From NCBI GenBank assembly GCA_963733195.1, contig CAVTCR010000009.1, positions 1 through 64,000 on the forward strand: 64,000 nt of DNA, written 5' to 3'. This DNA is from an uncultured delta proteobacterium. GTDB lineage: Bacteria; Desulfobacterota; Binatia; Bin18. How positions within the stretch are numbered: the first letter of the stretch is position 1; every line of letters begins with the position of its first letter. The notes below the pieces were generated by a model. It made no database searches and was not told the origin of the DNA. It saw nothing but the letters and a program-made list of their open reading frames with translations. Position numbers and translations under genes: made by a program. This document shows, in pieces, positions 6,940 to 52,796 of this stretch.

Positions 6940-7019
6940 TGTTGTGATCCTCCCCGAGATGGATTAGCCTTCATGATAAACCACATTCCCCCTTGTTCCG
7001 CAAGGCGAACTCCGCCACT

Positions 7020-7700
7020 ATGAAGGCTTCTATGAACTGCGTGTTGGTCCCGATAAAAGCCCTTGCCCAAGGAAAAAGCCGTCTCTCCGTGTGCCTTTCT
7101 GCCGAGGCGCGTCACGCGCTGTCACGTGCCATGCTAACGGATGTGTTGACCAGCGCTCGGAGCGCGACTGCGGTTGATCGCGTGGTTGTGGTCTCCTCCG
7201 ATCCTTCGTTGTTACAACTTGCTCGTCAGCTTGAGTGTCGAAACGGTTGATGAAGAGTACCCTCGTGGCCTCAATGGTGCGGTTGCCGTCGGAACCGAGT
7301 TCTGTTTGCAATTAGGAGCCACAGCGGTGCTCGTGCTTTTGGCAGACCTGCCGTTGGTAACGGCTGGTGACATTGAACTCATTTTCCAACAGACAAACGG
7401 TGGACCTCAGGTTATCTTAGTCCCTTGTAAAGAAGGGGAGGGTACCAACGCGTTATTGCGTGTTCCACCTGAGGTTGTTCCTACCCGTTTCGGTGGACCG
7501 AGTCTCGAAGCGCATCGAAAAGTTGCCCGTGAATACCGCATTGCCTTTCAAACGGTTGAACTCCCCCACATTGCGTTTGATATCGACTCAAGCGAAGATC
7601 TGCGGTGGTTTGCGTCTCAACAAGGAACGCGACCCTGCGTGACAAGAATGGGCGGGCGAGGAGAGACAGGTAACGCAGACCCTGCGTGTACTGCAAGAAT
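7020..7700 (+). CDS. cofC: 2-phospho-L-lactate/PEP guanylyltransferase (F420 biosynthesis); frameshift near 7233; 3' end uncertain
   Basis: LVPIKALAQGKSRL...AMLTDVL; GLNGAV; ADLPL; GTNALL; FGGPSLEAH; FDIDSSEDL. Confidence 0.85.
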
Positions 7701-7762
7701 TCGGCGTGTTTACCAGAGGAGAGTCGTAAGAGGGGTCTCTGTTGCTGACAAGTCATTGAGAC

Positions 7763-7899
7763 TGGATTCCGGCTTTCGCCGGAATGACGACTACCACCCG
7801 CCCGTCATTCCGGGCGAGCAACGTGAGACCCGGAATCCATCCGCGTTTTCCTGGATTCCCGCTCCCAGTAGGACTTGGGACAGGCTGCGCGGGAATGAC
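7763..7899. repeat. Cluster of three GGATTCC...GGAATGAC palindromic repeats, the third with a nested hairpin
   Basis: ctggattccggctttcgccggaatgac; gtcattccggg...cccggaatcca; ctggattcccgc[tcccagtaggacttggga]caggctgcgcgggaatgac. Confidence 0.8.
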
Positions 7900-7926
7900 G
7901 GACGGTGGCACTCCCTCTATTTCTGC

Positions 7927-8646
7927 TCACGATCCTGTGGTGAAGCTGATTTCGCTGAACACGCGATTGCCGTTCGCTCCGATCGCACCCAGGCTTACTT
8001 CATATTCAGTGTTGGGCAGCAGCAAGCCGTTGGGAATGGCAAACGAAGAGGCATCCGCTGGCAGATCCACTGTCAGGGTGGCCTCTGTCTCGTCGTTTTC
8101 CAGTTCGAGGAAGTACCCGCTCGCGCCTGCTACCGGTGCCCATGTGATAATCTGGCCGGTCACCGGAACTCCGGTTGCCCCGTTGCTCGGTATACTGATG
8201 ACAGGGGCTGGTAACAAGTCGTGAGAAAGCGTCACTTCCCCGATCACTCTGTCTCCACCATCCACCGTTGTACCACGAAATCGGTAGACCCCGGCTGGAT
8301 ACACAGCCTTGATCTCGTCGAGTGAGAGCTCGGGCGTTTTCACCAGCACCTCGCCCTGCCCCAGATTGGGGGTGTTCTTTGAGGTGAGGGACAATACCGT
8401 CTTGTCGTTTGGCGCTATCACTTTGAGTACTTTGAGGCCCACCTCGGCATCGACCACGGTAACCACCTCCGCCTCGTTGTCCGTAGCGTTGAATTCGAGA
8501 TAGAGGGTGACAAGTTCGAACTCCGGTTCCCCTTCGTCATCATTCGTCTGTGCTTGCACGGTGCTTGTCAGGCTCAACATCATCAGGGTCGCAAGGCCAA
8601 ACACAACAAGATATTTCTCTAACCAACTGCGTTTCCTATTATTCAT
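7927..8646 (-). CDS. Secreted acidic protein, paralog 1 (probable beta-sandwich/FN3-like C-terminal domain)
   Basis: RBS aggagg + ATG 8646; signal peptide ending VQA; LYLEFNATD, YPAGVYRF, ITWAPV, VDLP, GNRVFSEISFTT align with paralogs 2 and 3. Confidence 0.8.
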   Translation of the reverse strand: MNNRKRSWLEKYLVVFGLATLMMLSLTSTVQAQTNDDEGEPEFELVTLYLEFNATDNEAEVVTVVDAEVGLKVLKVIAPNDKTVLSLTSKNTPNLGQGEVLVKTPELSLDEIKAVYPAGVYRFRGTTVDGGDRVIGEVTLSHDLLPAPVISIPSNGATGVPVTGQIITWAPVAGASGYFLELENDETEATLTVDLPADASSFAIPNGLLLPNTEYEVSLGAIGANGNRVFSEISFTTGS

Positions 8647-8696
8647 ACTTTCCTCCTTGTTGGGGACATTGTGTTGACGTTTGTCTAAAGAAAAGA

Positions 8697-8710
8697 GCAA
8701 AGACGGTGCC
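8697..8710 (-). promoter_or_regulatory. sigma54 -24/-12 promoter of paralog 1
   Basis: Minus strand GGCACCGTCTTTGC (GG-N10-GC). Confidence 0.8.
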
Positions 8711-8770
8711 GCAAAGACGTGAGACAGGTGTCGATTTTTATAGAAGAGAATGCGCAGCAACACAGAAGCC

Positions 8771-8814
8771 GACAATTTTTGCAGACAATTTTTGCACCCC
8801 CTGTCTTTTTTGCA
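8771..8814. promoter_or_regulatory. Putative enhancer (UAS) for a sigma54 activator
   Basis: GACAATTTTTGCA twice in perfect tandem plus a third degenerate TGCA box; 60 nt from the -24 element. Confidence 0.7.
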
Positions 8815-8907
8815 GGGTATGGAGGGACAGGCTCCATTCGTCTCCGCCATAAAAAAGCGACTACGAATGGAGCCCGCGATCCACGACAGCGCGCGACTTC
8901 AGCGCCT

Positions 8908-9663
8908 TTACTGGAGAGTGAAGCAGGTCTCTATCGCCGTGTTGTTGCCAGTGGCCGTTCTGGCGATGATCTCGAACTTGAACTCGTCGCCCAGGGCAAG
9001 TGATGTCCGCTGGAACCTCGAACTGCGTCACTGTGGGCGGAAGGTCGACGGCGAACTTGAGGCCTCGCGCTCGACAAAGAACTGGTAGCGGGCGATTTCG
9101 ACCGGTCCCGTTTTGCCGATCTCGGGATGTGATGTCGTCACCGGATCCCAGTCGATGATGACGGGCTCGCTGACTGACTGGGAGGGGAACTGCGTCGCAG
9201 TTTTCTGCCGCCGGAATCTCCGTTAACCGTAATGTTGCCCACCGGGGCCGCCAGCACGTGGCTGAGCATCACTGTAGCCTTCGATCTCTTCTCCTGTCAG
9301 GCTCACGGCGTCGATTTCGTAAGTGCCTTCAGGAAACCGGCGGAAAAACTCTGCGGGAGCTAACTCGTCAAACGTTGGCTCAGCACTCTCGAAAAATAGC
9401 TGGGTAAGGCCCTGACGTGCCAAGCGCCCTATAGCTCTCAGGACCAGTATCACGCGCTCGTTCGGGTCTTCGATTTCCAGCCTCGAATAGGCCCCTCCAT
9501 CGATCGCACCGTGAATACCCAGATCTCCATCGGTGTCATTGAGCTCGACGAACAGTTCTGCCTCGGAGAATTCCGCGGCCTGAACCGCCGGGATAGCGGC
9601 TGCCAACGTAAGGCTGACCATCACTATCAGAGAGAGAGTTAACGGATTCATTCTTTTTCGCAT
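8908..9663 (-). CDS. Secreted acidic protein, paralog 2; several frameshifts in the 3' half
   Basis: Signal peptide ending VQA; ELNDTDGDLGIHG, FFESAEPTFDEL, RFPEG; shifted frames give AAENCDA, IIDWDPVTTSHP, FKFEII..GNNTAIETCF*. Confidence 0.8.
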
Positions 9664-9828
9664 TGTTGTGACTCCTTCTGTGTTTGAGAAGCTATCCACA
9701 CTCGAAAACAGCAACCCTTCCGTACGTCCGTAGGTCTCCACTGGTATGGTTATTGTGTAGTCATAGGAAAGCTCCTCCTTTGTTCAAAGTTATTCAGCCG
9801 AGATGGCTGTTACACTTGGAAGGAGAGA

Positions 9829-9842
9829 GCAAAGGGGGTGCC
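9829..9842 (-). promoter_or_regulatory. sigma54 -24/-12 promoter of paralog 2
   Basis: Minus strand GGCACCCCCTTTGC. Confidence 0.8.
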
Positions 9843-9903
9843 GCAAAGAGGTAAGAAAAATGTTGGATTTTTACCGAACAAGCCACGCAAAAATGCGGCG
9901 GCT

Positions 9904-9948
9904 GACAGTTCTTGCAGACAATCTTTGCGTGTTCCTGCCTTCCTTGCA
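9904..9948. promoter_or_regulatory. Putative enhancer (UAS), copy 2
   Basis: GACAGTTCTTGCA GACAATCTTTGCG plus a third TGCA box; 61 nt from the -24 element. Confidence 0.7.
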
Positions 9949-9997
9949 GGGGTGGGTAGGGAAGGGGGACGTGGTTACACGTCCTTGAGGAGGCCAG

Positions 9998-11762
9998 TCA
10001 TCGGGAAATCTCTGCCACTGGAAGATGGACGCGAAAGACCGTACCACGGCCTATCTCGCTCTCCACCGAGACACGGCCACGGTGCTCCTGCACCACTCGC
10101 TGAACGAACGTGAGACCCAGTCCTGCTCCGCCCTCACGACGGGTGAAGAATGGCTCGAAGATCCGGGCGCGAACCTCTTCGGTCATCCCGGGGCCGTCAT
10201 CGCGGACTTCGAAGCCGGCGTAGCCATCACGTACGGGCAGGATGGCAATCTCGATTGAGCCGCCATCCGGTAGAATCTGTACCGCGTTCACGAGGAGGTT
10301 CAACGCGACCTGATGGATAAGCTCGGGGTCACACAGAACCACCGGGTCCGGATCGATGGCACGGCGCCGGATGGTCACGTGCTTCTGGCGGGCTTGGGCA
10401 TCAACGAAGTCCGCTGTGCGAAAGAGAATCTGACCGAGTGGCGCCGGTTCAGGGCGCATTTTACGCGGCCGTCCGAGCTCGATCAGAGCCGAGACCACTC
10501 GTTCGATGCGATCGACTTCCTCTTGCAAGAGCCGGAGGAGTTCGCGTGACTCGTCGTCTTTCACTTCGAGTGAGCGTTCGAGGAGCTGAGCCGAACTGCG
10601 CAGGACACCGAGTGGCGTGCGAACCTCATGTGCGACACCGGCAGCCAGTTCGCCAACAAAGGAGAACTTTGCTGCCTCAACGAGCTCGCGTTCAGCACGT
10701 TTGAGGTCAGCAGCCATGCGGTTGAATGCGTCCGTGAGTGTCCCAATCTCATCTCGTGAGCGTACCGGAACCGTTGACTCCGGCCTCACGCCACGGCCAA
10801 CGGCTTCGGCTGCCCTGGTGAGTTCGGTCAAGGGTTCAGTTACCCGGCGAGCGGCAAGGAGGGAGATTGTTAGAGCGGCGAGCAGCGTCCCCCGAGAACT
10901 GTCGCTAGAAGTGTTACCATCCGACGGGCAGGAGCGAAAGCATTGGCAAGAGGTTCTGCAACGACCACTGTCCAGGGTGGTAGATCGTCGGGAAGCTTGG
11001 CATGACCGACAAGCATAGCCGCAGCTGGAGTCGATATACCCTGTGGTTGCATCGGTCCTTGCAGTATGCGAGATTGGAGGGGAAGTATGTCTCCGGGTTG
11101 CCACGGCCCATCCGTCCGGGCAGCACCGCCAATGACGATCCCGCGTGCGTCGAGAATCAGCACATCGGGGTCAAGGCTCACAGACACCAGGCTTCTCGCG
11201 CAGTCGCGCCATGACGTCCGTTCCCCGTCCCCAGTCGAAGAGTGCCACAAGCCGCCCGAGTCATCGCCTCGCGTGAGTCAGGGTCTGGCACTGGAACTGT
11301 AAAGCGGATAAGGTCCCGGCGGCATCGGTCGCTCTGGAATGGACCTTCAATCGTCTCTTCCGCGTCAGTCCCACCGGGTATCGTATTTTCATTCTCTCCG
11401 ATCCAGGAAGGGATTACTCGGAGGCGACGACGCGGCCCGCTGCGATTGAGCACGAGGAGATCCACACAGGCCGAACAGCCGCGCTTTACCGAGGCAAGAA
11501 ATGAGGAGATACGTTTGTCGAGGTCGGCGATACGAATTTCGCGCATCACATCCTGCGAGGCGAAAGACTCGAAACGTGCCCGCTCCGAGCGCAGGGTCGT
11601 GGCGAGACGGTCAGCTCCCTGTGAGCCTCCTCGACGAGCTGACGCCCGACCACCTGCGCAAGCGCCGCGCGGCTGCTCGAAAGCGAGATCGCTCCATAAA
11701 TGCCGCCAGGAATCAGGACCAGCGCGGTGCGAAAAGAAAAGAAGTTTGGTCCGCAACGACAA
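9998..11762 (-). CDS. Membrane sensor histidine kinase (periplasmic domain, HAMP, HisKA, HATPase); multiple frameshifts in the 5' half
   Basis: RDEIGTLTDAFNRM (HAMP), AHEVRTPL (H box), NLLVNA, DDGPG, FEPFFT, GAGLGL; N-terminus MSLRTKLL. Confidence 0.88.
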
Positions 11763-11958
11763 AGCCTGTACGCTCTCGGTACGTCACGTCGCCTGCTCCC
11801 TTTGCACGCACGGTCTCACAGGTGTGAAATTATATCAAGCAGTGAATCACTCGGGCTCCGCGATATGCCTCGAGTTATTCTCCAAATCGTTCTCCCTGTC
11901 GCAGCTCCACATTTGACTTTTGCATTTGGTGACAGTTGGTGATTTGACTCTGTCGATA

Positions 11959-13120
11959 TATTCCTCTAATAACCGCGAAATGCAGCGCTGCACCCGTGCA
12001 AATTCTGCCAGTCCTCCTCAGGTGCGGCTTCGTATCTCCTCTCTGCTTGTGATCGTGTTCTTCTTGTTAGTGCTCGTTTCACCCGCTGTGGGAGCGGACC
12101 CCGTGAAACAGCCACCTCCCAGCGTCGCTCCCGTCGAGCCGGAACTATTCGGTGCTGACACAGCACTTGGACGATTTTCATACCACACTGGTCGCGGCCT
12201 ACGGCTAGGGAAGACAGGGCTCACAGTTGGGGGATTCACAACCGTAGAGACGGAACTCCTTGAAGACGGCGAGCAGCGTGGCGGGATCGAGGAGCTAAAC
12301 TTCCTTATCTCCTTCGATCCGGTACCATTTGCCACACCTGTTTACCGAACTTGGGGTAGAGTCGCTGGCGGAAGTGGAGGAGGGTCGGCGGGGAGTGCAT
12401 TCAAATCCCTCGTTACAAGTCGAGCGGCTGTATCTAGACCTTGGATCTCGTGACGCTCTACGTCTACGGTTTGGCAAGTTTCAGACACCCATCGGACGGT
12501 GGAACCTGACACCGCGGGAACCGCTCCTGTGGACAACCTCTGAACCATTGATCGTAGAAGATGTGTTCGACGAGACGTCAACGGGAGCGATGCTGCATGG
12601 ATCGGTGTTCCCTCAGGGTGGGGCACTATCGTACTCACTGTACGGGACGTTCCTGCCTCCGCTCGATGCGGAAAGCGATGAAGACCCGGTCAGACGGAGT
12701 GCTGGGGCACACCTCGAATGGGCAAGTCTCAAAGGGTGGACCTTGGGAGCGTCGTATTTCGCCTCGCAACTGCGGAACGGCGAATGGAATCATTTGGGCG
12801 GTGCTGACCTCTTGTGGCAACTGCACAGGCGCGTCGAGCTGAGCGGCGAAGTGGTGTTCGGCGAGGGCAGTATCGAAGACGGCGCGACGTGGGGGTTGTA
12901 CGCTCAGGGTGTGGTGGAAACACTACCCACCCTGTACCTCGTCGGGCGTTACGAACGATTCAAGCCACCTGGCGGTGGGCGCGATATTAACCTGTTTGAC
13001 CTCGGTTTCGCCTGGGTACCAGTCCCCTATCTGCGCTTCAAGGCCGACTACGTTATCGCGGACCACCTTAATGAGATCTCTTCTCCCGGCTTGCGCATGT
13101 CGCTGTCAATTCTCTTTTGA
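11959..13120 (+). CDS. Outer-membrane beta-barrel (OprO/OprP-like porin); frameshift near 12333
   Basis: Signal peptide; LFTELG, LQVERLYLD, RFGKFQTPIGRWN; amphipathic strands; C-terminal Phe (LSILF). Confidence 0.75.
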
Positions 13121-13126
13121 ACTGTT

Positions 13127-13555
13127 ATGGGCACGCGACTTCTCAGCATAGCTCTCGCACTCCTCGTCTTCGCACCGGCGAACATCGCCGGGCAAGAGAG
13201 CCGTGTGGCGGTGATTGTTCATCCCGAGCGACGTGCCGAACTTTCGGCCGACGAAGTCGCGCAAATCTATCTTCGCCGTAAGCGTTTCTGGGACGACGGT
13301 ACACCTATCGTCCCGCTGAATCTTCCCTCGCAGGCGCCGCTGCGCACACGGTTTTCACGACTTGTGCTTCAACAGACTGAGCCTCGACTTGCGGACTACT
13401 GGAACCGGCTGTACTTCGACGGCATCCTTCCGCCAGCGACTCTCGCCTCGACTGAAGCCATCCGCCGTTATGTCGCTTCTGACGCAAATGCGATCGGGTA
13501 CGTTCCCGTCTCGGAGGTCGATGGAACGGTCCGCGTCATTCTGCAGTTGGAGTGA
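13127..13555 (+). CDS. Small periplasmic protein, PBP2/phosphate-binding-like single domain
   Basis: Signal peptide; VAVIVHP, IYLRRKRFWDDG, YWNRLYFDGILPP, VASDANAIGYV. Confidence 0.8.
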   Translation: MGTRLLSIALALLVFAPANIAGQESRVAVIVHPERRAELSADEVAQIYLRRKRFWDDGTPIVPLNLPSQAPLRTRFSRLVLQQTEPRLADYWNRLYFDGILPPATLASTEAIRRYVASDANAIGYVPVSEVDGTVRVILQLE

Positions 13556-13666
13556 GGACGCAGGCGTTGCCGCATCGCCTTGAAAAAAATAGCCACTCCA
13601 TCAGTGTACTCTAAATCGAAGCACAGAAGATTCGCACACTTCTTCTGCGGGTGAGACATCCGAGCA

Positions 13667-14509
13667 CTACTCCGTCTCGAAGCAGGTCTCAGCGGCGGTC
13701 TGGTTTCCACTTGCTCCTCTCACCACGATCTCGAGCTTGAATTCCGTGCCTAAAGCGATCAATTCCGGCGGAACCGTCACCTGTGGTTCGTTCGAGGGCG
13801 GAAGGTCGACACTAAACACGAGGAGGGTTGGGTCCTCCCGTTCGACGACGACTTGGTAGCCGACTATTTGAATTGCTGGATCAGATCTACCTATCCTGGG
13901 GTGTGATTGTGTAACAGGAGCCCAGCTGATGATGACCGGCTCGTCGCCGTCAACGGACGGAAGGAGGGCTGCATCGCAGTTCTCCGCCGCAGGAATTCCT
14001 GAGATCAAGATGTTTGCTGGCGGAGCTGGCAGAACATGCGTGAGCACCGCTGTGCTCTCTAGCTCATCTCCCTCAACTGTCTCGCCCTCGAATTCATATT
14101 CCCCCTCCGGGAACCGGGTCAGGAACTCGGTGGGCGGGAGTTCATCGAACGACGGCTCGTCGCTCTCGAAGAACACCTCGGTTAGGCCGTGCTGCCCAAG
14201 GCTCCCTCTGCCCCTGACCACAAGAATTTCTCGGTCGTCCGGGCCTTCGATCTCGAGCTTCTTCCAGGCGTCTCCATCAACGAGACCATGAATGCCTAGG
14301 TCGCCATCCGTATCGTTGAGCTCCAAGAAAATCTTCGCTTCGTCGAAGGGGGCCCCCTCCCCGTCGTCGTCTTCATTGTCATCATCGGCCCGGCTTCCCG
14401 GAGCAACAGCCACCACACTGAGGATGACTACCACCAGCAGTGAAAAGACCAACAGTCCCATGCTTTTTCGCATGGCCATGACTCTTGTCTTGTTTGAGAG
14501 AGTATTCAT
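13667..14509 (-). CDS. Secreted acidic protein, paralog 3 (intact)
   Basis: Signal peptide; DDDNEDDDGEG; ELNDTDGDLGIHG, FFESDEPSFDEL, AAENCDA, GNQTAAETCF. Confidence 0.85.
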   Translation of the reverse strand: MNTLSNKTRVMAMRKSMGLLVFSLLVVVILSVVAVAPGSRADDDNEDDDGEGAPFDEAKIFLELNDTDGDLGIHGLVDGDAWKKLEIEGPDDREILVVRGRGSLGQHGLTEVFFESDEPSFDELPPTEFLTRFPEGEYEFEGETVEGDELESTAVLTHVLPAPPANILISGIPAAENCDAALLPSVDGDEPVIISWAPVTQSHPRIGRSDPAIQIVGYQVVVEREDPTLLVFSVDLPPSNEPQVTVPPELIALGTEFKLEIVVRGASGNQTAAETCFETE

Positions 14510-14567
14510 AGAAACGTTCCCCCTTCGCTTGCAGAATTCAGCCGAGGTGGCTGTTACGCAGGGAGGA

Positions 14568-14581
14568 GCACTTCCCGTGCC
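14568..14581 (-). promoter_or_regulatory. sigma54 -24/-12 promoter of paralog 3
   Basis: Minus strand (T)GGCACGGGAAGTGC(T). Confidence 0.8.
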
Positions 14582-14644
14582 AGCGATGAAAGGTCAAAAG
14601 GGCTGGATGTTCGGAAGAGGGAGGGGCGTTGAAGTGGAGAGTCC

Positions 14645-14688
14645 GACGTTTTTTGCAGACAAATCCTGCATGATTCACGTTTTGTGCA
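14645..14688. promoter_or_regulatory. Putative enhancer (UAS), copy 3
   Basis: GACGTTTTTTGCA GACAAATCCTGCA plus a third TGCA box; 63 nt from the -24 element. Confidence 0.7.
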
Positions 14689-14720
14689 GTGCACGTTCAG
14701 CAAGAAGTAGTCAACTTTTT

Positions 14721-14794
14721 AGGGGCTGGGGATTAGGGATTGGGGGCTAGTGTTTTCTGTTTTTACCCACTCCTAACCCCTAGCCCCCAACCCC
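14721..14794. repeat. 7-mer tract with inverted arms (GGGGATT / CCCCTAA class)
   Basis: aggggct ggggatt agggatt gggggct ... cctaacc cctagcc cccaacc. Confidence 0.8.
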
Positions 14795-14822
14795 TTTTTT
14801 CTTGCTGAAAGCTGACCGCTGA

Positions 14823-16190
14823 CTATGACAGCCCGTATTTCTTCACCTTATACCAGAGTGCTCGCTCACTCATATCGAGTATCCGAGCAGCCTTTGCTTT
14901 ATTGCCGTCCGTCTGGGCCAGAGCTTTGGCGATGAATTCTCTTTCCAGATGCTCGATCGCCTGCGGGAGCGATATGGACTCGGGAAGAGCAGGGCGCTCG
15001 GCAACAGACAGACGCGCACTCGGCACGACAATTTCCTGGGGCAAATGCGTACTGTCGATGGGTTTCCCGCGACTCAGAACGGCGGCCCGTTCAAGGACAT
15101 TTTCCAACTCACGGACATTACCGGGCCAATCATACTGTTGCAGACTCTGCAGTGCCTGATCACTGATTTGCAATCGTTCATACCCTAACTTGGTTCCGTG
15201 ATGCTCAAGGAAGTGTTGGACCAGGAGCGGAATATCTTCCACCCGTGCCCGCACAGGTGGCATCTCTAGCGTGAAGACGTTAATCCGATAGAAGAGATCT
15301 TCCCGTAAGAGACCGTTCTGCACAGCCTGCTGCGGGTTGCGGTTGGTTGCCACAACGACACGAATATCCACCGAGACGCGCCGGTTACTGCCCAGTCGTT
15401 CTATTTCTCGTTCTTGTAACACTCGCAGCAGCTTTGCCTGCATCGGCAGTGGCATTTCCGTAATCTCATCAAGAAAAATAGTGCCGCCGTGGGCCATCTC
15501 AAACTTTCCCGCACGGTCTTGCGCCGCACCAGTGAAGGCCCCCCGAGTATGTCCGAAAAGTTCGCTTTCCAGGATGTCATCGGGAATCGCCGCGCAGTTA
15601 ATCGGCACGAACAGAGCCTTCTTTCGTGGCGACGCGCGGTGAATCGCCCGCGCAGCAAGTTCTTTACCCGTTCCCGTCTCGCCCGTAATCAGGACATTAG
15701 TGTTGTTGGGCGCGACTTGGTGAATGAGATCGTAGACGTGTTGCATGGCGGCACTGCGACCGACAAATTCGCCCCAGCCTTTTTCAACTTCTTCGCGCAG
15801 GAACAGGTTTTCTCGTCGAGTGCGTTCTGTCGTCAGGGCGCGGGTAATGACGCGTTCCACGGCCTCAACATCGAACGGCCGCAGAATATAATCATAGGCT
15901 CCCAACTTCATTGCTTGGACCGCGCTTTCGACCGTTCCGTACGCGGTAAGGAGAATGACCGGCGCCTCAACCTTTTGCGCGCGCAGCGCATCGAGCAAAG
16001 TCAGACCGTCCATCTCTGGCATTCTGAGGTCAGTCAGGACTAAATCGAAGGATTCCCGTTGGGCCAGGGCGAGCGCCTCCTGTCCGTTGCGTGCAGCGCG
16101 AGTCTCAAGTCCCATCTTTTGCAGCATGATTTCGAGCACCCGCCGCATCCGGGCTTCATCATCAACGACAAGAACGCGCTGCTGACTCAT
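14823..16190 (-). CDS. sigma54-dependent response regulator (NtrC/AtoC/ZraR family)
   Basis: REC (VVDDE, DLRMP), GETGTGKE, ESELFGH, GAFTGA, WPGNVRELEN, Fis-type HTH. Confidence 0.96.
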   Translation of the reverse strand: MSQQRVLVVDDEARMRRVLEIMLQKMGLETRAARNGQEALALAQRESFDLVLTDLRMPEMDGLTLLDALRAQKVEAPVILLTAYGTVESAVQAMKLGAYDYILRPFDVEAVERVITRALTTERTRRENLFLREEVEKGWGEFVGRSAAMQHVYDLIHQVAPNNTNVLITGETGTGKELAARAIHRASPRKKALFVPINCAAIPDDILESELFGHTRGAFTGAAQDRAGKFEMAHGGTIFLDEITEMPLPMQAKLLRVLQEREIERLGSNRRVSVDIRVVVATNRNPQQAVQNGLLREDLFYRINVFTLEMPPVRARVEDIPLLVQHFLEHHGTKLGYERLQISDQALQSLQQYDWPGNVRELENVLERAAVLSRGKPIDSTHLPQEIVVPSARLSVAERPALPESISLPQAIEHLEREFIAKALAQTDGNKAKAARILDMSERALWYKVKKYGLS

Positions 16191-16330
16191 GACACAACAC
16201 TCCTTTTGTTGGGGAATTGGACCACAAAACAGGCTCCTCGGTCACAAGGTTCGATAATAGCAAGTATCTCGCCATGTCCGCGTCTACAGCGGGTTGCAAT
16301 TGCCTGGGTCCAAACCCACATACTGCTTAG

Positions 16331-16500
16331 CCTGAGCGTAACGAAGCGAAGTCGAAGGCCGCCCTGCCTCTGACGGCAGGCGCAGCCTGCCCTACGGGCT
16401 CAGGAGAGAGGAAAACAGGGAAAGGAATAAGTGGGGAAAGGCTACAGGCAGTTTTTTCCTTTTCGCCTTTTACCCTTTTCACCGGTTTCCCCTTTCTCGC
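16331..16500. repeat. CCTGAGC...GCTCAGG REP-like element with nested hairpin, followed by an 8-mer purine/pyrimidine inverted tract
   Basis: cctgagcg..gaagtcgaagg..cctgcc-tctgac-ggcagg..gctcagg; then tttcgcct tttaccct tttcaccg gtttcccc. Confidence 0.65.
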
Positions 16501-16560
16501 TGTGGTCGTCTGTACTTTCCGCTCTGCCTTCCTTATTCTAACCTGCCCTTTTACACACCT

Positions 16561-17478
16561 ATGGAGCAACCGCAAATTGTCATCATCACTGGTCCGACGG
16601 CGACCGGGAAAACTGCGCTTGCGATTGAACTTGCGACCCAGTACGAGGCGGAAATCGTCAGTGCTGACTCGCGCCAGGTGTATCGTTATCTCGACATCGG
16701 TACGGCAAAACCCACGCCCGCACAACGTACAGCGGTCCCGCATCATCTTATCGACATCGTGGACCCAGATAAGCAGTTCGACGGAGCACAGTTTCGGACG
16801 TTAGCGTTGGCAGCAATCGAGAGCATCTTGCAGCGAGGGAAACGCGTCCTTGTGGTCGGTGGTACCGGACTCTATCTCCGCATGCTGACCCGTGGCCTCT
16901 TTGCTGGACCTCCGGCGGACCCCGCGTTGCGTACTCGTTTGCACGAGCAGGAACAAAGCGAAGGGAAGGGTTTCTTGCATCAGTGCTTACGTGACGTTGA
17001 TCCAGACACTGCGAACCGTTTGCACCCGAATGATATCGTGCGATTGATTCGTGCATTAGAAGTGTTTCTCATCACGGGAAAACCGATGAGCCACTGGCAG
17101 CGTGAGCACGGGTTTCGTGAACGTCAGTTTGCTACGTTGACGCTCGGTTTAGTGTGTGAGCGTGAAACCCTCCACCAACGCATTGCCGAACGTTGTCAAC
17201 AAATGTTGAAAGATGGCCTTGTTGACGAAGTACGCCGCGTATGGAACATGGGGTACGGACCTCAACTGCCAGTGATGAAAACTATCGGGTATGCGCAAGT
17301 CGGAGCGTTTCTCCAAGAACAGTGTAGTAGCGAAGAGGCGCTCGCGCAGATGACGACAGAAACAAAACAGCTAGCGAAGCGGCAATTGACGTGGTTCCGT
17401 GCGGAACCAGACGTTCAGTGGTTTGCACCCTCCCAAGGACGAGAGATCGCTTCTGTGATAGGGAAGTTTTGGCAATAG
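16561..17478 (+). CDS. miaA: tRNA dimethylallyltransferase
   Basis: GPTATGKT, DSRQVYR.LDIGTAKP, VGGTGLY, LAKRQLTWF. Confidence 0.97.
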   Translation: MEQPQIVIITGPTATGKTALAIELATQYEAEIVSADSRQVYRYLDIGTAKPTPAQRTAVPHHLIDIVDPDKQFDGAQFRTLALAAIESILQRGKRVLVVGGTGLYLRMLTRGLFAGPPADPALRTRLHEQEQSEGKGFLHQCLRDVDPDTANRLHPNDIVRLIRALEVFLITGKPMSHWQREHGFRERQFATLTLGLVCERETLHQRIAERCQQMLKDGLVDEVRRVWNMGYGPQLPVMKTIGYAQVGAFLQEQCSSEEALAQMTTETKQLAKRQLTWFRAEPDVQWFAPSQGREIASVIGKFWQ

Positions 17479-17490
17479 TAGAATGCAGAG

Positions 17491-17585
17491 GGCGAAATGG
17501 CGAACAGGGGAAAAGGCGAAAAGGACAACAAAGATTTTTTCTCTTGACCTATTCCCCATTTTCCCTTTTACCCTTTTCCCCTGTT
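17491..17585. repeat. 8-mer tract with inverted arms
   Basis: ggcgaaat ggcgaaca ggggaaaa ggcgaaaa ... attttccc ttttaccc ttttcccc. Confidence 0.75.
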
Positions 17586-17594
17586 GGAGAGAGT

Positions 17595-21060: not shown

Positions 21061-21936
21061 ATGTTATTCAACCGCCTTGTCATCGCTGGAGTCGGGCTTA
21101 TTGGTGGGTCACTTGGACTTGCGGCTCGCGAACGCGGGCTCGTGCGCGAAGTTGTCGGCTTTGGCCGTACCGAGGCGAATCTCAGAGTTGCGCTCGATCG
21201 TGGTCTCATTAGTTCGTATACCTTCGATCCGGCTGAGGCGGCGCGTGGAGCCGATCTCTTTTTACTCGCGGTTCCAGTGGAAGCCACTGAATCGACGATG
21301 GAGAAGTTTATTCCACATCTTCCACCAGGCTGCATTATTACGGACGCGGGCAGTACCAAAGAACAGGTTGTGAAGACGCTGGAGCACGTATTGCCACCGA
21401 CACTACTGTGTGTGGGCGCGCATCCGATTGCCGGAACCGAACATTCCGGTGCGGCCGCGGCATTTGCCACGCTGTTCGAGAAACGGTTGTGCATTCTTAC
21501 TCCGACCCCACGGACCGATCGTATGGCTTTAGCTCAGGTGCGCGCCTTGTGGGAAGGCGTTGGTATGCGGGTCGAAGAAATGGATATGCACACGCACGAT
21601 CAAGTTCTTGCTCGTGTGAGCCATCTGCCGCATCTGATTGCCTTTAGTGTGATGAATGCGGTGTTAGATACGCAGGTCGCAGATGTGGACCTTTTGCCTT
21701 ATGCTGGTGGCGCTTTCTCTGATCTGACCCGGGTGGCGGCGAGTCCAGTCGAAATGTGGCGTGACATTTGTACCTCTAATCGCGAAGCGTTGCTTGCCGC
21801 TATTACTGAATTTGAAACAGCGCTGTCTCGTATGAAGACAGCGGTTGAGAATGGCGACGGTGAAGCGCTTTCCACTGCTATTGATCGTGCCCGAGGTGAG
21901 CGGCAGAGATTAACCAAGCTGCGGGAGCAGAAGTAA
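21061..21936 (+). CDS. tyrA: Prephenate/arogenate dehydrogenase
   Basis: GVGLIGGS, DAGSTK, HPIAGTE, SHLPH, DLTRVA. Confidence 0.93.
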   Translation: MLFNRLVIAGVGLIGGSLGLAARERGLVREVVGFGRTEANLRVALDRGLISSYTFDPAEAARGADLFLLAVPVEATESTMEKFIPHLPPGCIITDAGSTKEQVVKTLEHVLPPTLLCVGAHPIAGTEHSGAAAAFATLFEKRLCILTPTPRTDRMALAQVRALWEGVGMRVEEMDMHTHDQVLARVSHLPHLIAFSVMNAVLDTQVADVDLLPYAGGAFSDLTRVAASPVEMWRDICTSNREALLAAITEFETALSRMKTAVENGDGEALSTAIDRARGERQRLTKLREQK

Positions 21937-21940
21937 GTAA

Positions 21941-22092
21941 CCAGTAGTTAGCATTCAGTAGTCAGTAGGAAAAAAGGATAAATAGTGAATTGAATGAGAG
22001 ACAGGGAAAAGTGGAGAGAGAGAACAATAGATGAAGGAACGCGAAAAGAACGCTCTGTTTGCTTTATCCGTTTATCCCTTTATCCTTGTTCT
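21941..22092. repeat. TCAGTAG 7-mer tract followed by an 8-mer (TTTATCC) inverted tract
   Basis: ccagtag ttagcat tcagtag tcagtag; ctttatcc gtttatcc ctttatcc. Confidence 0.7.
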
Positions 22093-34150: not shown

Positions 34151-34257
34151 ATTGGGTCATTTGTTCATTGGGTCATTGATTCATTTTCTGATTGGGCCAT
34201 TTGTTCATTGAGACAATGGTCCAATGATGCAATCTGTCAATTCTGCAATGATCCAAT
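34151..34257. repeat. 8-mer tract with inverted arms (ATTGGGTC / GATCCAAT)
   Basis: attgggtc atttgttc attgggtc attgattc attttctg attgggcc atttgttc ... ggtccaat gatgcaat ctgtcaat tctgcaat gatccaat. Confidence 0.85.
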
Positions 34258-34269: not shown

Positions 34270-37200
34270 TCAATGGCTCAATTCTTCAATCAGCGCCTTG
34301 GCCTCTTGCAAATCCTTCGTGTCAAACCCTTCCGTGAACCAGTTATAGACATCGGATAACATATTGTGTGCTTCGGCTCTCTTCCCTTGTTGCCGCCACA
34401 GCTCCACGAGGCTCACCGTGGCGCGGAGTTCCAGTGACTTGGCTTGTTGCTTTCTGGCGATCTCAATGGCTTTCAGGAAGCACGCTTCGGCTTCCTCGAA
34501 CGTGCATGGTGGGCGAGGGGTGAAGGGCCGAGGGGTTCGGTAGCTGTCAATTGTGAACGTCATGATTTTGCATAACTGCGTTCATCTGTAGAATGAGTTC
34601 GCCCTTGAGTCGATATAGCTCGGCTTCGTACAACGTTCTCCATGTCTTCATCTACACTGGCCAGTGCCTCGGCCAACAAGAGTCAGTCCTTCCTCGATTC
34701 GCCCTGTTTTCCGTATACCTCAGCAAGCAATGGCAAGAAAATACGGACTTACTCAGTTTTCTGATGCCTGTCGCTCTAACAGTCAGCCAAACCCTGGTGC
34801 ATCTGCGCAATCCCCTCATCTGTTTGTCCTTGCTCAGCGAGCGCCCAGCCCTGATGGATGGTCCCAGACGCCAAGCAAAAAGAGAAACCCGTGCTCGGTC
34901 GAAAGACAATCGACCGCTTCCGCTCGCTCCTGCATCTGCTTTCTCTTCTCGACGAAATTGGTGGAACTACGCAGCAACGCTTAACGTCGCGGCGAGGCTG
35001 TAAGGGTAGCGAAGCGTCCTGCGTTAAGGTAAGGCATGCATGGTTTTCTGTGAGCGCTTGGTCGGAAAGCCAAGAAGCCAGAGTGCCCAAGCCTACACAG
35101 ATCAGACTAACCACTCCAGGGTGCTTCCCCGTAGAGAAAGGTCAGGGAGCGGTGCTGCTGGGGATTATGGAGGGCAATACCTTGCTCTAGGTGTTCTCGC
35201 GCTTGAGGCCACGTCTGCCAAGCCACAATGAACTAAGGTGTCCCCTAACGTCGGTGGGCCTCCATGAAGAGGATGTGGGTCTTGCGCCATTCCGGGCTAA
35301 GTTGTAGGAACTGTTCCCCCAGCTCTAGGCTGCCTTCTGTAACTCCGCCCGCACAAGATGAAAGCCCACAGTCCATACAGCACAGGGAAGAGCTGGGGAG
35401 TTTCGCCCACGTGGCGGCACAGCTCGAGCGCCCGGGCGTAGACTTTTTCCACTTCTTGGGCAGCGTAGCCCTTCACCGCACCCAGGGGTATGCCCAGGGC
35501 AATTTGCAGTGCGAGTTCTCGCTGCGCGCGCTCAGGTGTCTCCGCCAGGGTCTTGAGCAACTCCAGCGCTGTAGTCAAGTGAGTGTGATGGCCTCTGCGT
35601 GCGCCGACCGCTGCACCGCCTGTTGTCCCGCCAGGCCGAGATACTCCACTGCCTTCTTGGTGTTACCGCTGCGCCTGTAGTGATGGGCCAGATCACTGTA
35701 GTGGTCTTCTAACCTCTCGTGATAGAGCGCCTCGATCGCTTGCCCGGTCTGCTCGTGCAAGGCTTTGCGTCGCTCCTGGAGAACAGAGTTGTACGCCACT
35801 TCCTGAGTGAGGGCATGCTTGAAAATATACTCAACCTCTGGAAACGCGGGCTGCTCGTAGAGAAACTCTTTGTGCTGGAGCGAGGCCAGAAGCCGATAGA
35901 GTCGTCTTCGGGCTGAGCGATGACTTGGCGGACAGGCTGAGCGGGAACTCCCGACCGATCACCCCGAGTTGTTGGAGTAGCGCTTTCTCTTCTGGGGCGA
36001 GACGGTCGATACGCGCGGCCAGGACACCTTGGACGGTGGGGGGAATGTGAATTGCCGTAGGGGCAGGGCTCGCCCTGCCCACGGAGGGCGACGCAAGCGT
36101 CGCCCCTATATCGGTTCGGACCAACACGCCTTGTTCAACCAAATCCTGGACAATCTCTTCCATGAAAAACGGCGTACCTTCGGTCTTCTCTAGAATCAGT
36201 TGTTTGAGGGTGTGTAGGGGCGCACCTATGTGTGCGCCCGGTCTCTCTGGGCCGGCACGTCAGGTCGGCCCCTACGGAAACACCTAACAATGCATCCAGG
36301 AATTCTTCAGCCTCGGCTCTGCCAAACGGTGCTAACCGCAGCTGCGTGTAATACGTCTTCTGCCCCCACTCATGCCGATACTCTGGACGATAATTCACCA
36401 GCAGAAGAATCTTGGCTGAGGCAATTCCTTCACTCAGAGTATCGAGAAATCCTTGCGTCTCGCTATCAATCCAATGCAGGTCTTCAAAGATGAGGAGCAG
36501 TGGCTGATTAAGACTCTCGCGTAAGAACAACTTCTTGATCGCGTCGAACGTGCGACGGCGGCGAATCTGCGCATCCATCTGCTGGAGATTCGACTGGTGC
36601 TCGTCGATACCCAGCAGTGAGAATAGATATGGCAAAGTCTCTTCCAAGCTGCGATCAAGCATGAGCACTTTGCCGCCGACCTTCTCCCGTCGCGTGCGTT
36701 CATCGTCTTGGGGTTGAAGCTGGAAATAACTCTTGAGCAGTTCAATCACTGGTAGATAGGGCGAGGCTTTGCCATGCGAGATCGAGTAGGCTTCAAGCAC
36801 TAAGCAACCGCTTTGCGAGGTCTGTTTGAACTCGTAGAAAAGACGGGATTTCCCGAGTCCGGGTTCACCCATAACGCCTATAATCTGCCCATGCCCGGCT
36901 TTGGCTTGCATCAGCGCGTGCTGCATCTGGGCCATCTCACTCTGCCGTCCGACGAATCGTGTCAATCCACGCCGTGCTGCGACTTGTAACCGCGTGCGTA
37001 ACGGGCCCGCGCCGAGCACTTCATAGACGTTCAGCAGCTCTTCGACGCCTTTGATCTGCGCGGCTCCGAGCGTCTTCAATTCAAAGTAGCCTTCCACTAA
37101 TCGTCGTGTGTAATCAGTAATTAGGATCGAGCCCGGTGTCGCCATCTGCTCCATGCGTGCCGCTAAGTTCGTCGAGTGCCCAACCGGGACATAATCGGTA

Positions 37201-37843
37201 TGTAGATCATCTTTACGAATCGAGCGCACGACGACTTCGCCGGTATTAATTCCTACGCGCATTTGTAGAGGAGTCCCACCCTTCAAGCGTGACTGGTCAC
37301 TATACCGTCGCATTTCCTCCTGCATGCGGAGGGCAGCATAGAGCGCGCGTTGGGGATGATCTTCATGAGCAATCGGCGCACCAAACAGAGCAAAGATGCC
37401 ATCACCTAACGCTTGTGCAACGTAGCCTTCATAGCGATGGACGGCATCCATCATCAGCTGCAAGGCGGGATCAATAATCGCGCGTGCTTCTTCTGGGTCG
37501 AGGCCTTCAATCAACGCCGTCGAGCCCTTGAGATCGGCAAAAAGAGCCGTGATGGTTTTGCGTTCACCATCCGACACGGACACCGCACGGATGCGGTCCG
37601 CCAGATGAGCGGGAGTGTAGGCTGCTGGGGGTGGGGAACTGACAATGTTGGGGGCTGGGTACTAGGTGCTAGGGGTAGGGACTGAGAACTGACAACTAGC
37701 GAAGCACCACACTCGGCGCAAAACTTCGCCGTGGGACTGACCGAAGAGCCACATTGAGAACAAACTGTGATCAGTTTCGTTCCACACTCTTCGCAGAACT
37801 TGGCGGTATCACTGTTCGGGTGACTGCACTGCGGACAACCCAT
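34270..37843 (-). CDS. Double zinc ribbon + class III adenylate/guanylate cyclase + AAA (STAND-like) + TPR protein; many frameshifts (possible pseudogene)
   Basis: CPQC..FCEECG..CSQCG..FCAECG; ERKTITALFADLKGST, LGDGIFALFGAP, NLAARME; GEPGLGKSRL; EDLHWID; WFTEGFDTKDLQEA; split over at least 7 ORFs. Confidence 0.88.
36057..36110. repeat. GTAG-type REP doublet inside a CDS
   Basis: gtaggggcagggctcgccctgccc acgga gggcgacgcaagcgtcgcccctata; read in frame as IGATLASPSVGRASPAPT. Confidence 0.85.
36214..36275. repeat. GTAG-type REP doublet inside a CDS
   Basis: gtaggggcgcacctatgtgtgcgccc ... gggccggcacgtcaggtcggcccctac. Confidence 0.85.
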
Positions 37844-39170: not shown

Positions 39171-39327
39171 GTTGGGGTAAATAGGGAAAAGGGGGAAGGG
39201 GATAGAAGGATAAGGGGAAAAGGATAAAGGATGAAATGGAACAAGAAAAGAGAACGTCCTCACGTTTTTCTGCCTTTATCCCTTATCTATCCCGTTTTCC
39301 CCTTTCCCCTTTTCGCCTTTTACCCGC
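39171..39327. repeat. Purine-rich / pyrimidine-rich 8-mer inverted tract
   Basis: ggggtaaa tagggaaa ... aggataaa ... ttttcccc tttcccct tttcgcct tttacccg. Confidence 0.75.
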
Positions 39328-39333
39328 GAAGTC

Positions 39334-40600: not shown

Positions 40601-40700
40601 TGGGGTAAATGGGAAAAAGGAGAAACGGGTAAACGGTGAAGAGGGGAAATTACTCTTTCTCTCCCTATTTCGCCATTTCACCTTTTACACCTCTTTCCCT
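40601..40700. repeat. 8-mer tract with inverted arms
   Basis: ggggtaaa tgggaaaa aggagaaa cgggtaaa cggtgaag aggggaaa ... atttcgcc atttcacc. Confidence 0.75.
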
Positions 40701-40708
40701 TGTTCCAG

Positions 40709-41487
40709 TTAGTCCCACATCAATCCGCCATCGACGTTAAATGACTGGCCAGTGATGTTGCGTGCTTCATCGGAAGCTAAGAACGCCGCCATATTCGCAA
40801 TGTCGTCACCGTGTTCGAGCGTCTTAAAGGAATTGAAGCATCCATGCGGGCCATGGCCTCGGCTTCCGTAATTTTCTCGCGCTCGACAATTTCTTTCATT
40901 ATCCGATCGTACAGTTCCGTACGGGTCGCACCAGGATTGATGGCATTGACATTGATGTTGTATTTCGCAAGTTGTGAGGCGCCGATGCGGGTCATGGCGA
41001 TGACCGCACCTTTCGAGCCAGCGTAGGAAATATTCGAGGTGCCACGAAATCCTTTGCCAGCGATCGACGCGATATTGATGATCTTCCCCTCTTTGCGTTT
41101 GACCATCTCGCGCGCAACTGCCTGCATGCAGAAAAACACGCCCTTAGCGTTGACCGTGTGAATCCAGTCCCAATCTTTTTCCGTAACCTCGAAGAAATCG
41201 AGCTTCCTGGTCACGCCGGCGTTGTTCATGAGGATGTCGATGCGACCAAATGTCTCGATGGTTTTCGCGACCATCGCATTGATGTCGCTCAGTTTGCTCA
41301 TGTCCGTTTTCACGAATAGGCCACGACGGTCATGAGCACTGACTTCAGCAGCGATCTGGTTTCCGGTAGCGTCATTGATTTCGGCACACACGACGTGTGC
41401 ACCTTCTCTCGCGTACCGCAGGGCGATGGCTTTCCCCATACCTGCACCAGATCCAGTGACGATAGCAATTTTGTCTTTGAGTAACAT
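40709..41487 (-). CDS. SDR family oxidoreductase; frameshift near 40812
   Basis: TGSGAGMG, NNAG, S...YAGSK; shifted frame ends DIANMAAFLASDEARNITGQSFNVDGG. Confidence 0.92.
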
Positions 41488-52758: not shown

Positions 52759-52796
52759 GTTGTTTTTGCCTTGACAACACGCCTGGGGAATCAGCT

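Follow-up and report, generated by a model that had tools for sequence, protein, structure and literature searches.

In an uncultured delta proteobacterium (Binatia; Bin18), an 8.3-kb block of contig CAVTCR010000009.1 (assembly GCA_963733195.1) carries the genes of three paralogous exported proteins together with those of a sensor histidine kinase, a sigma-54 enhancer-binding protein (EBP), a porin-like outer-membrane beta-barrel and a small PstS-like protein. Do these genes form one regulatory system, and what would be the role of the three paralogs, which belong to a family here called PAR? A first interpretation (the sequence-only reading) had proposed that a signal passes from the outer membrane through the periplasm to the kinase and the activator, and co-induces the three secreted proteins. 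The block was analysed within a window of 64,000 nt (positions 1 to 64,000 of the contig), in which the list of open reading frames (ORFs) and Pfam searches recovered all the genes named in that reading. Its cis-elements and domain architectures, the conservation of its promoter module and its synteny in relatives were computed.

The interpretation that we favour, and consider probable though not secure, is a lineage-specific sigma-54 two-component regulon with PAR as the output of envelope ion sensing. A membrane kinase with a periplasmic Cache-like sensor would phosphorylate an activator of the NtrC/AtoC/ZraR type, its presumed partner, and the activator would bind tandem 13-nt sites of the TGCAAAAATTGTC type about 80 nt upstream of three -24/-12 promoters. 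Three paralogous, Sec-exported and very acidic PAR proteins of two beta-sandwich domains would thus be co-induced. An OprO/P-like barrel may admit the ligand, and the single-lobe PstS-like protein may present it to the kinase. PAR would act in the periplasm as the output of envelope ion or metal sensing, perhaps as its feedback accessory; ZraP has this role in ZraPSR.

Promoters, upstream sites and activator

Sigma-54-type promoters were defined as GG and GC 10 nt apart within TGGCAC-N5-TTGC, upstream of a gene. Each paralog has its own GG-N10-GC promoter, as had been claimed, and the three sites keep six to seven of the eight scored consensus positions (Table 1). The pattern GGCAC-N5-KTGC occurs at three sites in the 64 kb, all on the minus strand and each upstream of one paralog; this count alone is unremarkable, the mean in shuffled sequences being 1.47 and three or more sites being reached in 17 of 100 shuffles. 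The enhancer core TTGTCTGCAANAANNGTC is present in exactly three copies in the 64 kb, even allowing two mismatches, with a mean of 0.17 in the shuffles, none of which (0 of 100) reached three. It begins 78, 79 or 81 nt upstream of the GG, the last value being that of par3, in agreement with the shared enhancer at a like distance described in the sequence-only reading. Ahead of the par1 site stands a short inverted repeat (CCCTG-N9-CAGGG), and behind it an A/T-rich stretch. One NtrC-family EBP and three promoters with matching sites lend in silico support to the proposal that a single activator would drive the three paralogs together. Motif scans found no sigma-54 promoter before the kinase or the EBP gene, and neither a sigma-54 promoter nor an upstream activating site before the barrel and its PstS-like neighbour.

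Relatives of the block were sought by a scan of one genome per species, which gave 297 confirmed PAR loci; the best 80 were analysed (L037, L043 and so on). The exact upstream site was found in only one of the 80, L037, and a relaxed search then found variants in L043. In these two loci, upstream site, A/T-rich stretch and promoter are conserved as one module of about 150 nt, which also stands ahead of non-homologous genes, namely those of acidic Cys-rich secreted proteins of 388/389 aa and an ATP-grasp/Kdo-hydroxylase/ThuA operon. A module that is kept, and is placed before non-homologous genes, supports a real regulon with variable membership.

Some details of these relatives may be added. 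In L043, two exported Cys-rich proteins of 372 and 389 aa are encoded at 8684-9802 and 11036-12205, with equivalents in L037; each has 13 Cys, and their pI values are 5.74 for the 372-aa protein, which has no Pfam match, and 4.45 (strongly acidic) for the 389-aa one. Both genes lie behind the same sigma-54 module and both are absent from the window. The ATP-grasp/Kdo-hydroxylase/ThuA operon of L043 (5103-8114), behind a copy of the promoter module, is followed at 8117-8422 by a fragment that corresponds, with 88% identity, to residues 197-256 of the window kinase ORF; operon and fragment imply that the L043 cluster was rearranged by duplication or insertion.

The par2 leader is about 180 nt long and has a conserved hairpin. 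A leader element with a small hairpin (AACAGCCAYCTCGGCTGAAT) follows both the par2 and the par3 promoter (9792-9820 matches 14536-14564), and is also present in the par2-like leaders of L043 and L037. In the par2 leader this element is followed by a Shine-Dalgarno site with a four-codon mini-ORF, about 100 nt before the real start. The element of par2 and par3 may serve post-transcriptional control.

The EBP is an NtrC-family response regulator, with a receiver, an AAA+ domain with GAFTGA in its translation, and a C-terminal Fis-type helix-turn-helix. Its Pfam matches, all above cutoff, are Response_reg (107 bits), Sigma54_activat (243 bits) and HTH_8 (49 bits), together with AAA_lid_14, and comparison with the EBP of locus L050 showed no frame break. 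Among NCBIfam models the best is AtoC with 493 bits (cutoff 714); NtrC gives 446.6 (cutoff 558.6), TIGR02915 (PrsR), the third best, 403.8 (cutoff 502.6) and ZraR 396.8 (cutoff 760). By these cutoffs, the EBP is not an AtoC, NtrC or ZraR equivalog.

Table 1. Genes, promoters, upstream activating sites and repeats of the block, in window coordinates.
Feature	Position	Strand	Description
EBP	14823-16190	-	sigma-54 enhancer-binding response regulator, 455 aa
par3	13667-14509	-	intact; exported acidic PAR protein of 280 aa, two beta-sandwich domains
PBP-like gene	13127-13555	+	142-aa single-lobe PstS-like periplasmic protein
barrel	about 11980-13120	+	porin-like outer-membrane beta-barrel; one frame break near 12334
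kinase	9998-11762	-	sensor histidine kinase; 7 frame breaks between 11729 and 10886
par2	8908-9663	-	PAR paralog, 5 frame breaks; ORF 9223-9741 plus C-terminal part in other frames
par1	7927-8646	-	divergent PAR paralog; 239 aa counted from the Met after a Shine-Dalgarno site
par3 promoter	14568-14581	-	sigma-54-type -24/-12 (TGGCACGGGAAGTGC); 7 of 8 scored consensus positions
par2 promoter	9829-9842	-	sigma-54-type (CGGCACCCCCTTTGC); 6 of 8 scored consensus positions
par1 promoter	8697-8710	-	sigma-54-type (CGGCACCGTCTTTGC); 6 of 8 scored consensus positions
par3 upstream activating site	14638-14670	-	tandem 13-nt units; core TTGTCTGCAA at 14645-14662
par2 upstream activating site	9897-9929	-	core 9904-9921
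par1 upstream activating site	8764-8796	-	two perfect TGCAAAAATTGTC units; core 8771-8788
REP-like hairpin units, three	7700-7925		GTCATTCCSGCG ... GGAATCC; left edge, between cofC and par1
period-8 tandem repeat	16452-16511		right edge of the block
inverted repeat	14735-14795		between EBP stop and par3 upstream site; possible hairpin or terminator

Kinase, barrel and PstS-like protein

The 368-aa C-terminal ORF of the kinase matches HAMP (48.6 bits), HisKA (53.3 bits) and HATPase_c (96 bits) of Pfam, so that the HAMP histidine kinase of the sequence-only reading stands as to its domains; its gene, however, is not one open frame, and the seven breaks had been missed. The transmembrane helices and the periplasmic domain were read in the intact orthologs of L043 and L050 (609 and 613 aa), giving the order transmembrane helix, Cache-like periplasmic domain of about 250 aa, transmembrane helix, HAMP, HisKA and HATPase. 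The match of the L043 ortholog to dCache_1 has 20.7 bits (E=3.4e-4), under the cutoff of 45. With the C-terminal ORF as the only part scored, the kinase reaches 204.8 bits for AtoS (cutoff 646) and 175.3 for ZraS (cutoff 479), and on that basis is neither an AtoS nor a ZraS equivalog by NCBIfam cutoffs. In L050, the gene of the kinase ortholog and an EBP gene share 4 nt, and next in order is a PAR gene. An independent case is L059 (Lysobacterales), where an EBP-kinase pair is followed by a TGGCGCCCGGATTGC element and then by a PAR gene.

On the minus strand the order of the genes is EBP, par3, kinase, par2 and par1, and the barrel and the PstS-like gene, inserted between par3 and the kinase in the opposite direction, form a pair divergent from the kinase. 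The C-terminal 261 aa of the barrel, ending in SILF, are 85% identical to the intact L043 protein; intact barrel ORFs in L043 and L050 have 417 or 438 aa. The L043 ortholog has Porin_O_P as its sole Pfam match (17.3 bits, cutoff 20.9), and the L050 ortholog and both barrel pieces of the window have none. Look-alikes of the barrel in the Atlas include Porin_O_P, LbtU and BBP2 clusters.

The 142-aa protein has no Pfam match at E<=0.01, and its score against TIGR02136 is 17.9 bits (E=0.0013, cutoff 206.6). Its weak sequence matches in the PDB are five, all of them PstS (E 0.03-0.6), and the first 35 listed Foldseek matches of its model (pLDDT 67) are all phosphate-binding proteins, with E values of 1.7e-5 to 0.08 and TMq 0.5-0.58. 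The matched PstS chains have 241-334 aa, and the alignments span 118-145 columns. Judging from the model, the protein is one lobe of a two-lobe binding protein, with the PstS-type fold of the part present; having one lobe only, it cannot be a canonical PstS. It has 362 homologs; among the 120 listed, which are 69-98% identical and often carry JGI names such as phosphate-transport binding protein, lengths range over 107-175 aa, and 93 have exactly 142 aa.

For this pair, admission of a ligand and its presentation to the kinase is, we infer, the most likely role. The relay from outer membrane through periplasm to kinase is plausible from synteny, i.e. the grouping of PstS-like, porin and kinase genes in L043 and of porin and kinase genes in L050. 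A predicted complex of the L043 PstS-like protein (residues 24-142) with the kinase sensor (residues 30-279) scored 0.28 at a mark of 0.32, and counts neither way. It is possible, if doubtful, that the pair is not the input path, but an independent uptake or outer-membrane unit, or one of the outputs or clients of the system, and that the kinase senses directly via its Cache-like domain. Cache-type sensors commonly bind small ligands directly. The lack of a sigma-54 promoter or upstream site before the pair would suit such a unit, as would the absence of a physical link to the kinase, the half-protein nature of the PstS-like partner, and the fact that tblastn found its gene only in L043, PAR-associated systems elsewhere being without one. 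The gene order speaks for a connection with the kinase, which is divergent from the pair in the window and in L043 and from the barrel in L050; so does the conservation of the PstS-like protein among the listed homologs, which fits constrained protein-protein contacts, and so does the presence of outer-membrane barrels with the two-component system at 12 of the 80 other PAR loci.

A further point is the state of the genes. Frame breaks were located by frameshift-aware alignment of the intact L043 and L050 proteins to the window. Both references placed seven of them in the kinase (11729, 11622, 11261, 11194, about 11075, 11026 and about 10886) and five in par2 (9276, 9218, 9178, 9068 and 8998); the barrel has one (12334; ORFs 11920-12453 and 12329-13120). 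These numbers leave aside breaks at the par2 stop (8913) and at or before start codons (11760, about 11916/11925), and also the +1 steps at 11441, 11419 and 11403, which appeared with the L050 reference only, sum to one codon and lie in a divergent stretch. The corrected kinase retains no in-frame stop, and is identical to the L043 protein at 221 of 291 residues in the sensor half and 265 of 294 in the kinase half, the corresponding values for the intact L050/L043 pair being 199 of 291 and 239 of 294, in the same ratio. Corrected par2 shares 202 of 267 aligned residues with its L043 ortholog; by parts, it has 99/128 and 95/122 identical residues, compared with 81/123 and 86/121 for the comparison pair.

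Most of the window consists of long clean ORFs, of up to 900 aa, and dense patches of breaks are also present outside the block. The cofC gene (2-phospho-L-lactate guanylyltransferase-like, 6993-7640, plus strand) is split into two ORFs, which cover positions 2-60 and 62-179 of Pfam CofC, with one break near 7175-7250. An adenylate/guanylate-cyclase gene with AAA_16 (ORF 36135-37583, minus strand) is broken up downstream, with five or more pieces from 36.1 to 34.3 kb; ORF and pieces together span 34270-37583, and the pieces are in different frames and include TPR-like sequence.

Because the breaks are indels without extra substitutions, and fall in patches across unrelated genes, it is quite probable that they are assembly or consensus errors rather than old pseudogenes. 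The opposite view, that kinase, par2 and barrel are true pseudogenes, remnants of a system that no longer works here, appears unlikely to us. It could appeal to the concentration of 13 breaks in three genes of the block, EBP, par1, par3 and the PstS-like gene being intact, and to the first transmembrane helix of the kinase, which is out of frame between two compensating breaks. Nevertheless, the corrected sequence is free of stop codons, its substitutions do not exceed those of the intact ortholog pair, and similar dense patches affect cofC and the 34.3-36.1 kb region in a window whose ORFs are mostly clean. Since unrelated genes are hit and substitutions are not in excess, this pattern fits patchy consensus error better. 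A read-level check is needed before any gene here is called a pseudogene.

The PAR family and its neighbourhoods

The three outputs are homologous, as the sequence-only reading had stated: par1 and par3 are 30% identical, and par2 and par3 share 71-79% nucleotide identity over segments. Their export signals are putative, and were recognized by eye from an N-terminal hydrophobic stretch with A-x-A-like sites. Of the candidates scored in a search with par3, 1220 are homologs at E<=0.001, all unnamed and devoid of Pfam domains. With a 93-sequence PAR profile, the number of clusters at 50% identity falls from 2206 at E<=0.001 to 1447 at 1e-10 and to 461 at 1e-30. The same profile had 0 matches to PDB sequences at E<=1, and a Pfam scan of par3 gave no match. 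No paralog matched an NCBIfam model, PEP-CTERM models included, and the C-termini end in CFETE.

Pfam fn3 is found at E<=0.01 in only 2 of the 93 members, and par1 matches it weakly (17.1 bits, cutoff 25); some longer relatives pass the cutoff, e.g. with 46.5 and 43.9 bits. In 16 longer representatives scanned, fn3 was detected in 11, RTX repeats in 2, CBM_4_9 in 1 and nothing in 4, and a word-indexed search for PAR fusions gave only 6 longer proteins (fn3, AMIN). These fusions hint, weakly, at an extracellular setting.

The AlphaFold (AF2) model of par3 (pLDDT 86.8) has a disordered N-terminus and two beta-sandwich domains, and its Foldseek matches are tandem FnIII/Ig-like proteins (RbmA, ice-adhesin repeats, SiiE, integrin FnIII pairs). 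With approximate cleavage sites, mature par1 and par3 have a pI of about 4.05, and mature par3 contains 54 Asp+Glu versus 13 Lys+Arg. Residues E63, N65, T67, D68, D70, D78, E111, E115, E118, D122, E123, H158 and H203 are invariant or nearly so, C178 and C276 form a conserved Cys pair, and the N-terminal domain has an invariant ELNxTDGDLG-type motif of its own. par1 keeps the first motif and H158, and is devoid of the Cys pair and H203. The acidity of the outputs noted at the outset is therefore real, and the cation binding deduced from it may draw indirect support from the metal-type, FecR and LbtU neighbours of PAR.

The PAR loci span Binatia, Gammaproteobacteria, Acidobacteriota, Planctomycetota, Desulfobacterales, Nitrospirota and others; two cultured Gammaproteobacteria, Litoribacillus peritrichatus and Lysobacter koreensis, are among them. 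For the neighbourhoods, ORFs within 7 kb of PAR were clustered by BLASTP single linkage, shorter overlapping ORFs being dropped; the PAR gene was displaced by a longer shadow ORF in 15 loci, and kinases and regulators fell in one cluster. Of the 80 loci, 17 have a two-component gene no farther than 0.6 kb from PAR, 25 have one at up to 3 kb and 27 at up to 5.5 kb, so that such genes are concentrated beside PAR. At 12 loci the two-component system is joined by an outer-membrane barrel; one barrel passes the LbtU model (122.7 bits, cutoff 90), and others carry Alginate_exp. A gene for FecR or for an ECF sigma factor is found within 5.5 kb in 12/80 loci, and a TonB-type receptor often goes with it. 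Either type of sensor lies within 3 kb in 34 of the 80 loci, and in 24 of the 54 having at least 3 kb on both sides. In four two-component pairs sampled, the best models were the heavy-metal-type TIGR01386/TIGR01387.

A signal-peptide HEAT-repeat protein (Pfam HEAT_2) is encoded at most 0.4 kb downstream of PAR in 27 of the 80 loci; in all, 28 loci have it, and it directly follows PAR in many Gammaproteobacteria and Acidobacteriota (e.g. L077, 10906-11773; L052, 10817-12160). It is absent from the window, and may be a partner of PAR.

PAR is read as an output of ion or metal sensing because, in other phyla, it adjoins heavy-metal-type OmpR-family two-component systems, with or without a porin, or FecR/ECF/TonB-type genes. 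A broader view would be that PAR is a large, unrecognised family of acidic periplasmic beta-sandwich proteins which in at least six phyla serves envelope ion and metal sensing as its dedicated output or accessory; at the present locus, porin and PstS-like protein would form a true relay from the outer membrane through the periplasm to the kinase. Three architectures would then be distinguished: a porin joined to a heavy-metal-type two-component system, a TonB-type receptor joined to FecR/ECF, and the sigma-54 two-component system described here. We regard this generalization as speculative and put little weight on it.

Two other functions of PAR deserve consideration. PAR proteins might be metal-loaded periplasmic accessories that bind and tune the sensor kinase, with negative or positive feedback, as precedents exist in ZraP for ZraS (PMC4987338) and in PmcY, an acidic periplasmic protein that feeds the metal sensor CzcS as its Zn-dependent partner (PMC13231896). 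Their place directly beside sensor systems of three architectures, and their acidic character with conserved Asp, Glu and His, are in keeping with this idea. Even so we find it rather improbable, considering that no kinship of PAR with ZraP or PmcY is seen in sequence or fold (no direct comparison with them was made), that PAR has no Pfam family, that three paralogs with their own promoters look more like a dosage output, and that many PAR loci have no sensor gene within 3 kb. Finally, it is not likely that PAR proteins are RbmA-like matrix or adhesion proteins in a system controlling aggregation or biofilm on a nutrient cue, for instance phosphate: the best fold matches include those to SiiE, RbmA and ice-adhesin Ig-like repeats, the C-terminal domain is fn3-like in line with the domains of the longer relatives, some of which have RTX repeats or CBM_4_9 fused to PAR, and barrel and PstS-like protein point weakly to phosphate-type Porin_O_P and PstS, but the fold matches are low and generic for tandem beta-sandwiches, the block has no secretion-system gene or sorting signal, and the neighbours elsewhere are metal-type sensors, not polysaccharide genes.

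Surroundings, comparison with known systems and meaning

Several observations weigh against the sigma-54 regulon with PAR as its output. The co-occurrence of the five families, on which the sequence-only reading had relied for its check, did not extend beyond close relatives: in tblastn searches of the 80 loci with the window proteins, counting EBP and kinase matches from 100 bits up, barrel, PstS-like protein and kinase occur together only in L043, and barrel, kinase and EBP only in L050, while L037 is syntenic with part of L043, so that the full set is present in only 2 to 3 of 80 loci. As L043 and L050 are 77-86% identical to the window in kinase core, barrel and PstS-like protein, the five families co-occur only within one lineage. 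The operonic EBP of L050 is only 53% identical to that of the window, compared with 86% for the kinase core, and the window-type upstream site is absent from the L050 PAR promoter region; the pairing of the window kinase with the EBP is thus presumptive. Among the ORFs of the window that were scanned, none was an rpoN gene. Sigma-54 control of PAR as a family was rejected, the motif being upstream of 9 of 83 PAR genes and of 488 of 5000 random windows, i.e. at background.

Also on this side are the neighbourhood counts, which are raw numbers with no matched random-gene baseline, and the 46 of 80 loci in which neither a two-component nor a FecR/ECF gene lies within 3 kb of PAR. The heavy-metal models of the sampled pairs are under cutoff (214.5-268.9 vs 292.55 and 243.4-258.1 vs 279.2 bits), and the fold matches of PAR are generic (TMq 0.2-0.35). 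Kinship of the window barrel to barrels at other PAR loci was tried by BLASTP and not shown: the window type matched the LbtU-type barrel with E=0.005 over 85 residues, and a second type not at all. Lastly, real frame breaks would leave this genome without a working sensor.

The block is chromosomal, since housekeeping genes flank both sides: coaD, rsmD, thiolase and cofC on one (ORF translations and Pfam), and miaA, accA, pheA, hisC-like, tyrA, aroA, cmk and rpsA on the other. Repeats are present at both edges of the block, as previously reported; the period-8 repeats also occur in four other intergenic regions and so do not mark the block specifically. The arrays of CCTTTTCG/CCTTTTAC-like units, all intergenic, lie at 16452-16511, 17534-17593, 39286-39345, 40659-40710 and 47684-47735, and a second period-8 array with another unit (ATTGGGTC/ATTTGTTC) at 34151-34238; period-8 repeats may be a genome-wide intergenic repeat of the lineage. 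Two 33-nt copies of a AGTAGTCAGTAG-type repeat, 91% identical, stand just after genes (21936-21968 and 42676-42708). The arms of the inverted repeat next to the EBP gene (14735-14755 and 14775-14795) are 86% complementary, and no T-run follows.

No Rfam family or tRNA was found in the 64-kb window, and scans of 7600-16600 for sigma-70 promoters (3 vs 2.8) and terminators (9 vs 9.3) stayed at the level of shuffled sequence. The window also encodes a 900-aa cytoplasmic GAF-PAS histidine kinase (52755-55457, plus strand) and a PAS protein (62956-63675, plus strand); nothing ties either to the block.

Among known systems, ZraPSR, which responds to zinc and envelope stress in E. coli and Salmonella, is by analogy the closest in logic. 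There, ZraS and ZraR drive a sigma-54 promoter for the adjacent gene of the periplasmic zinc-binding protein ZraP (PMC4987338). Both loci combine a membrane kinase, a sigma-54 EBP, a sigma-54 promoter and a small periplasmic protein encoded alongside, and ZraS and ZraR are among the best NCBIfam models for the window proteins, though far under their cutoffs. In contrast to ZraPSR, the outputs here are three paralogous beta-sandwich proteins for which Pfam has no family, the kinase and EBP genes do not form an operon and have no sigma-54 promoter before them, and a barrel and a PstS-like gene are added.

AtoSC and NtrBC have the regulator architecture in common with the window, GAFTGA included, and likewise a -24/-12 promoter whose upstream sites stand about 80-100 nt away, and AtoC and AtoS are the top NCBIfam models for EBP and kinase, below equivalog cutoffs. 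The targets differ, being exported proteins here and not metabolic genes, and so do the sites, that of NtrC being a dyad and that of the window a tandem direct 13-nt repeat. In PEP-CTERM/PrsK-PrsR systems, a sigma-54 EBP and a kinase activate many exported paralogs, each behind a conserved upstream box. The window EBP is under the PrsR cutoff, PAR has neither a match to a PEP-CTERM model nor a C-terminal anchor, and the block has no EpsH/exosortase or polysaccharide genes.

The pair of barrel and small protein recalls OprO/OprP with PstS, an uptake path of phosphate starvation, the barrel ortholog matching Porin_O_P and the small protein PstS relatives only. Both matches are below thresholds, the small protein is one lobe, pstCAB and phoBR are missing, and the pair adjoins a kinase and not a transporter. 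As to heavy-metal systems of the CusRS/CopRS/CzcRS type, PAR directly adjoins a two-component operon in 17 of 80 loci, and heavy-metal models are best, below cutoff, in the four pairs sampled from these; the window has a sigma-54 EBP and a Cache-like kinase instead, and PAR is unrelated to the named metal chaperones as far as shown. RbmA, like PAR, is an exported two-domain beta-sandwich, and its chains are among the top fold matches; yet TMq is 0.22-0.23 at 10-13% identity with no sequence relation, and PAR has a motif of its own.

That the system is undescribed, as first claimed, agrees with the lack of a characterised match in Pfam, NCBIfam, the PDB and a targeted literature search, in which the gene set was not found described and the PAR family has no name to search by; its logic is still that of known sigma-54 two-component regulons such as ZraPSR. 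The regulatory logic is standard, but the locus stands out as a regulon that is clean and self-contained to an unusual degree, from a lineage that has been little studied, and its three promoters with a simple tandem 13-nt site are directly testable. If the broader view of PAR given above is true, with a real relay here, this one locus would show how a new module of envelope homeostasis is built, from input and relay to cis-sites and output. The main interest lies in the two unannotated components. The single-lobe PstS-like protein is a strongly conserved second small unknown. PAR has no Pfam model and no solved relative, and yet comprises about 2200 clusters at 50% identity; its position beside envelope sensors offers a hypothesis for these widespread hypothetical proteins, namely that they may be periplasmic ion- or metal-responsive proteins.

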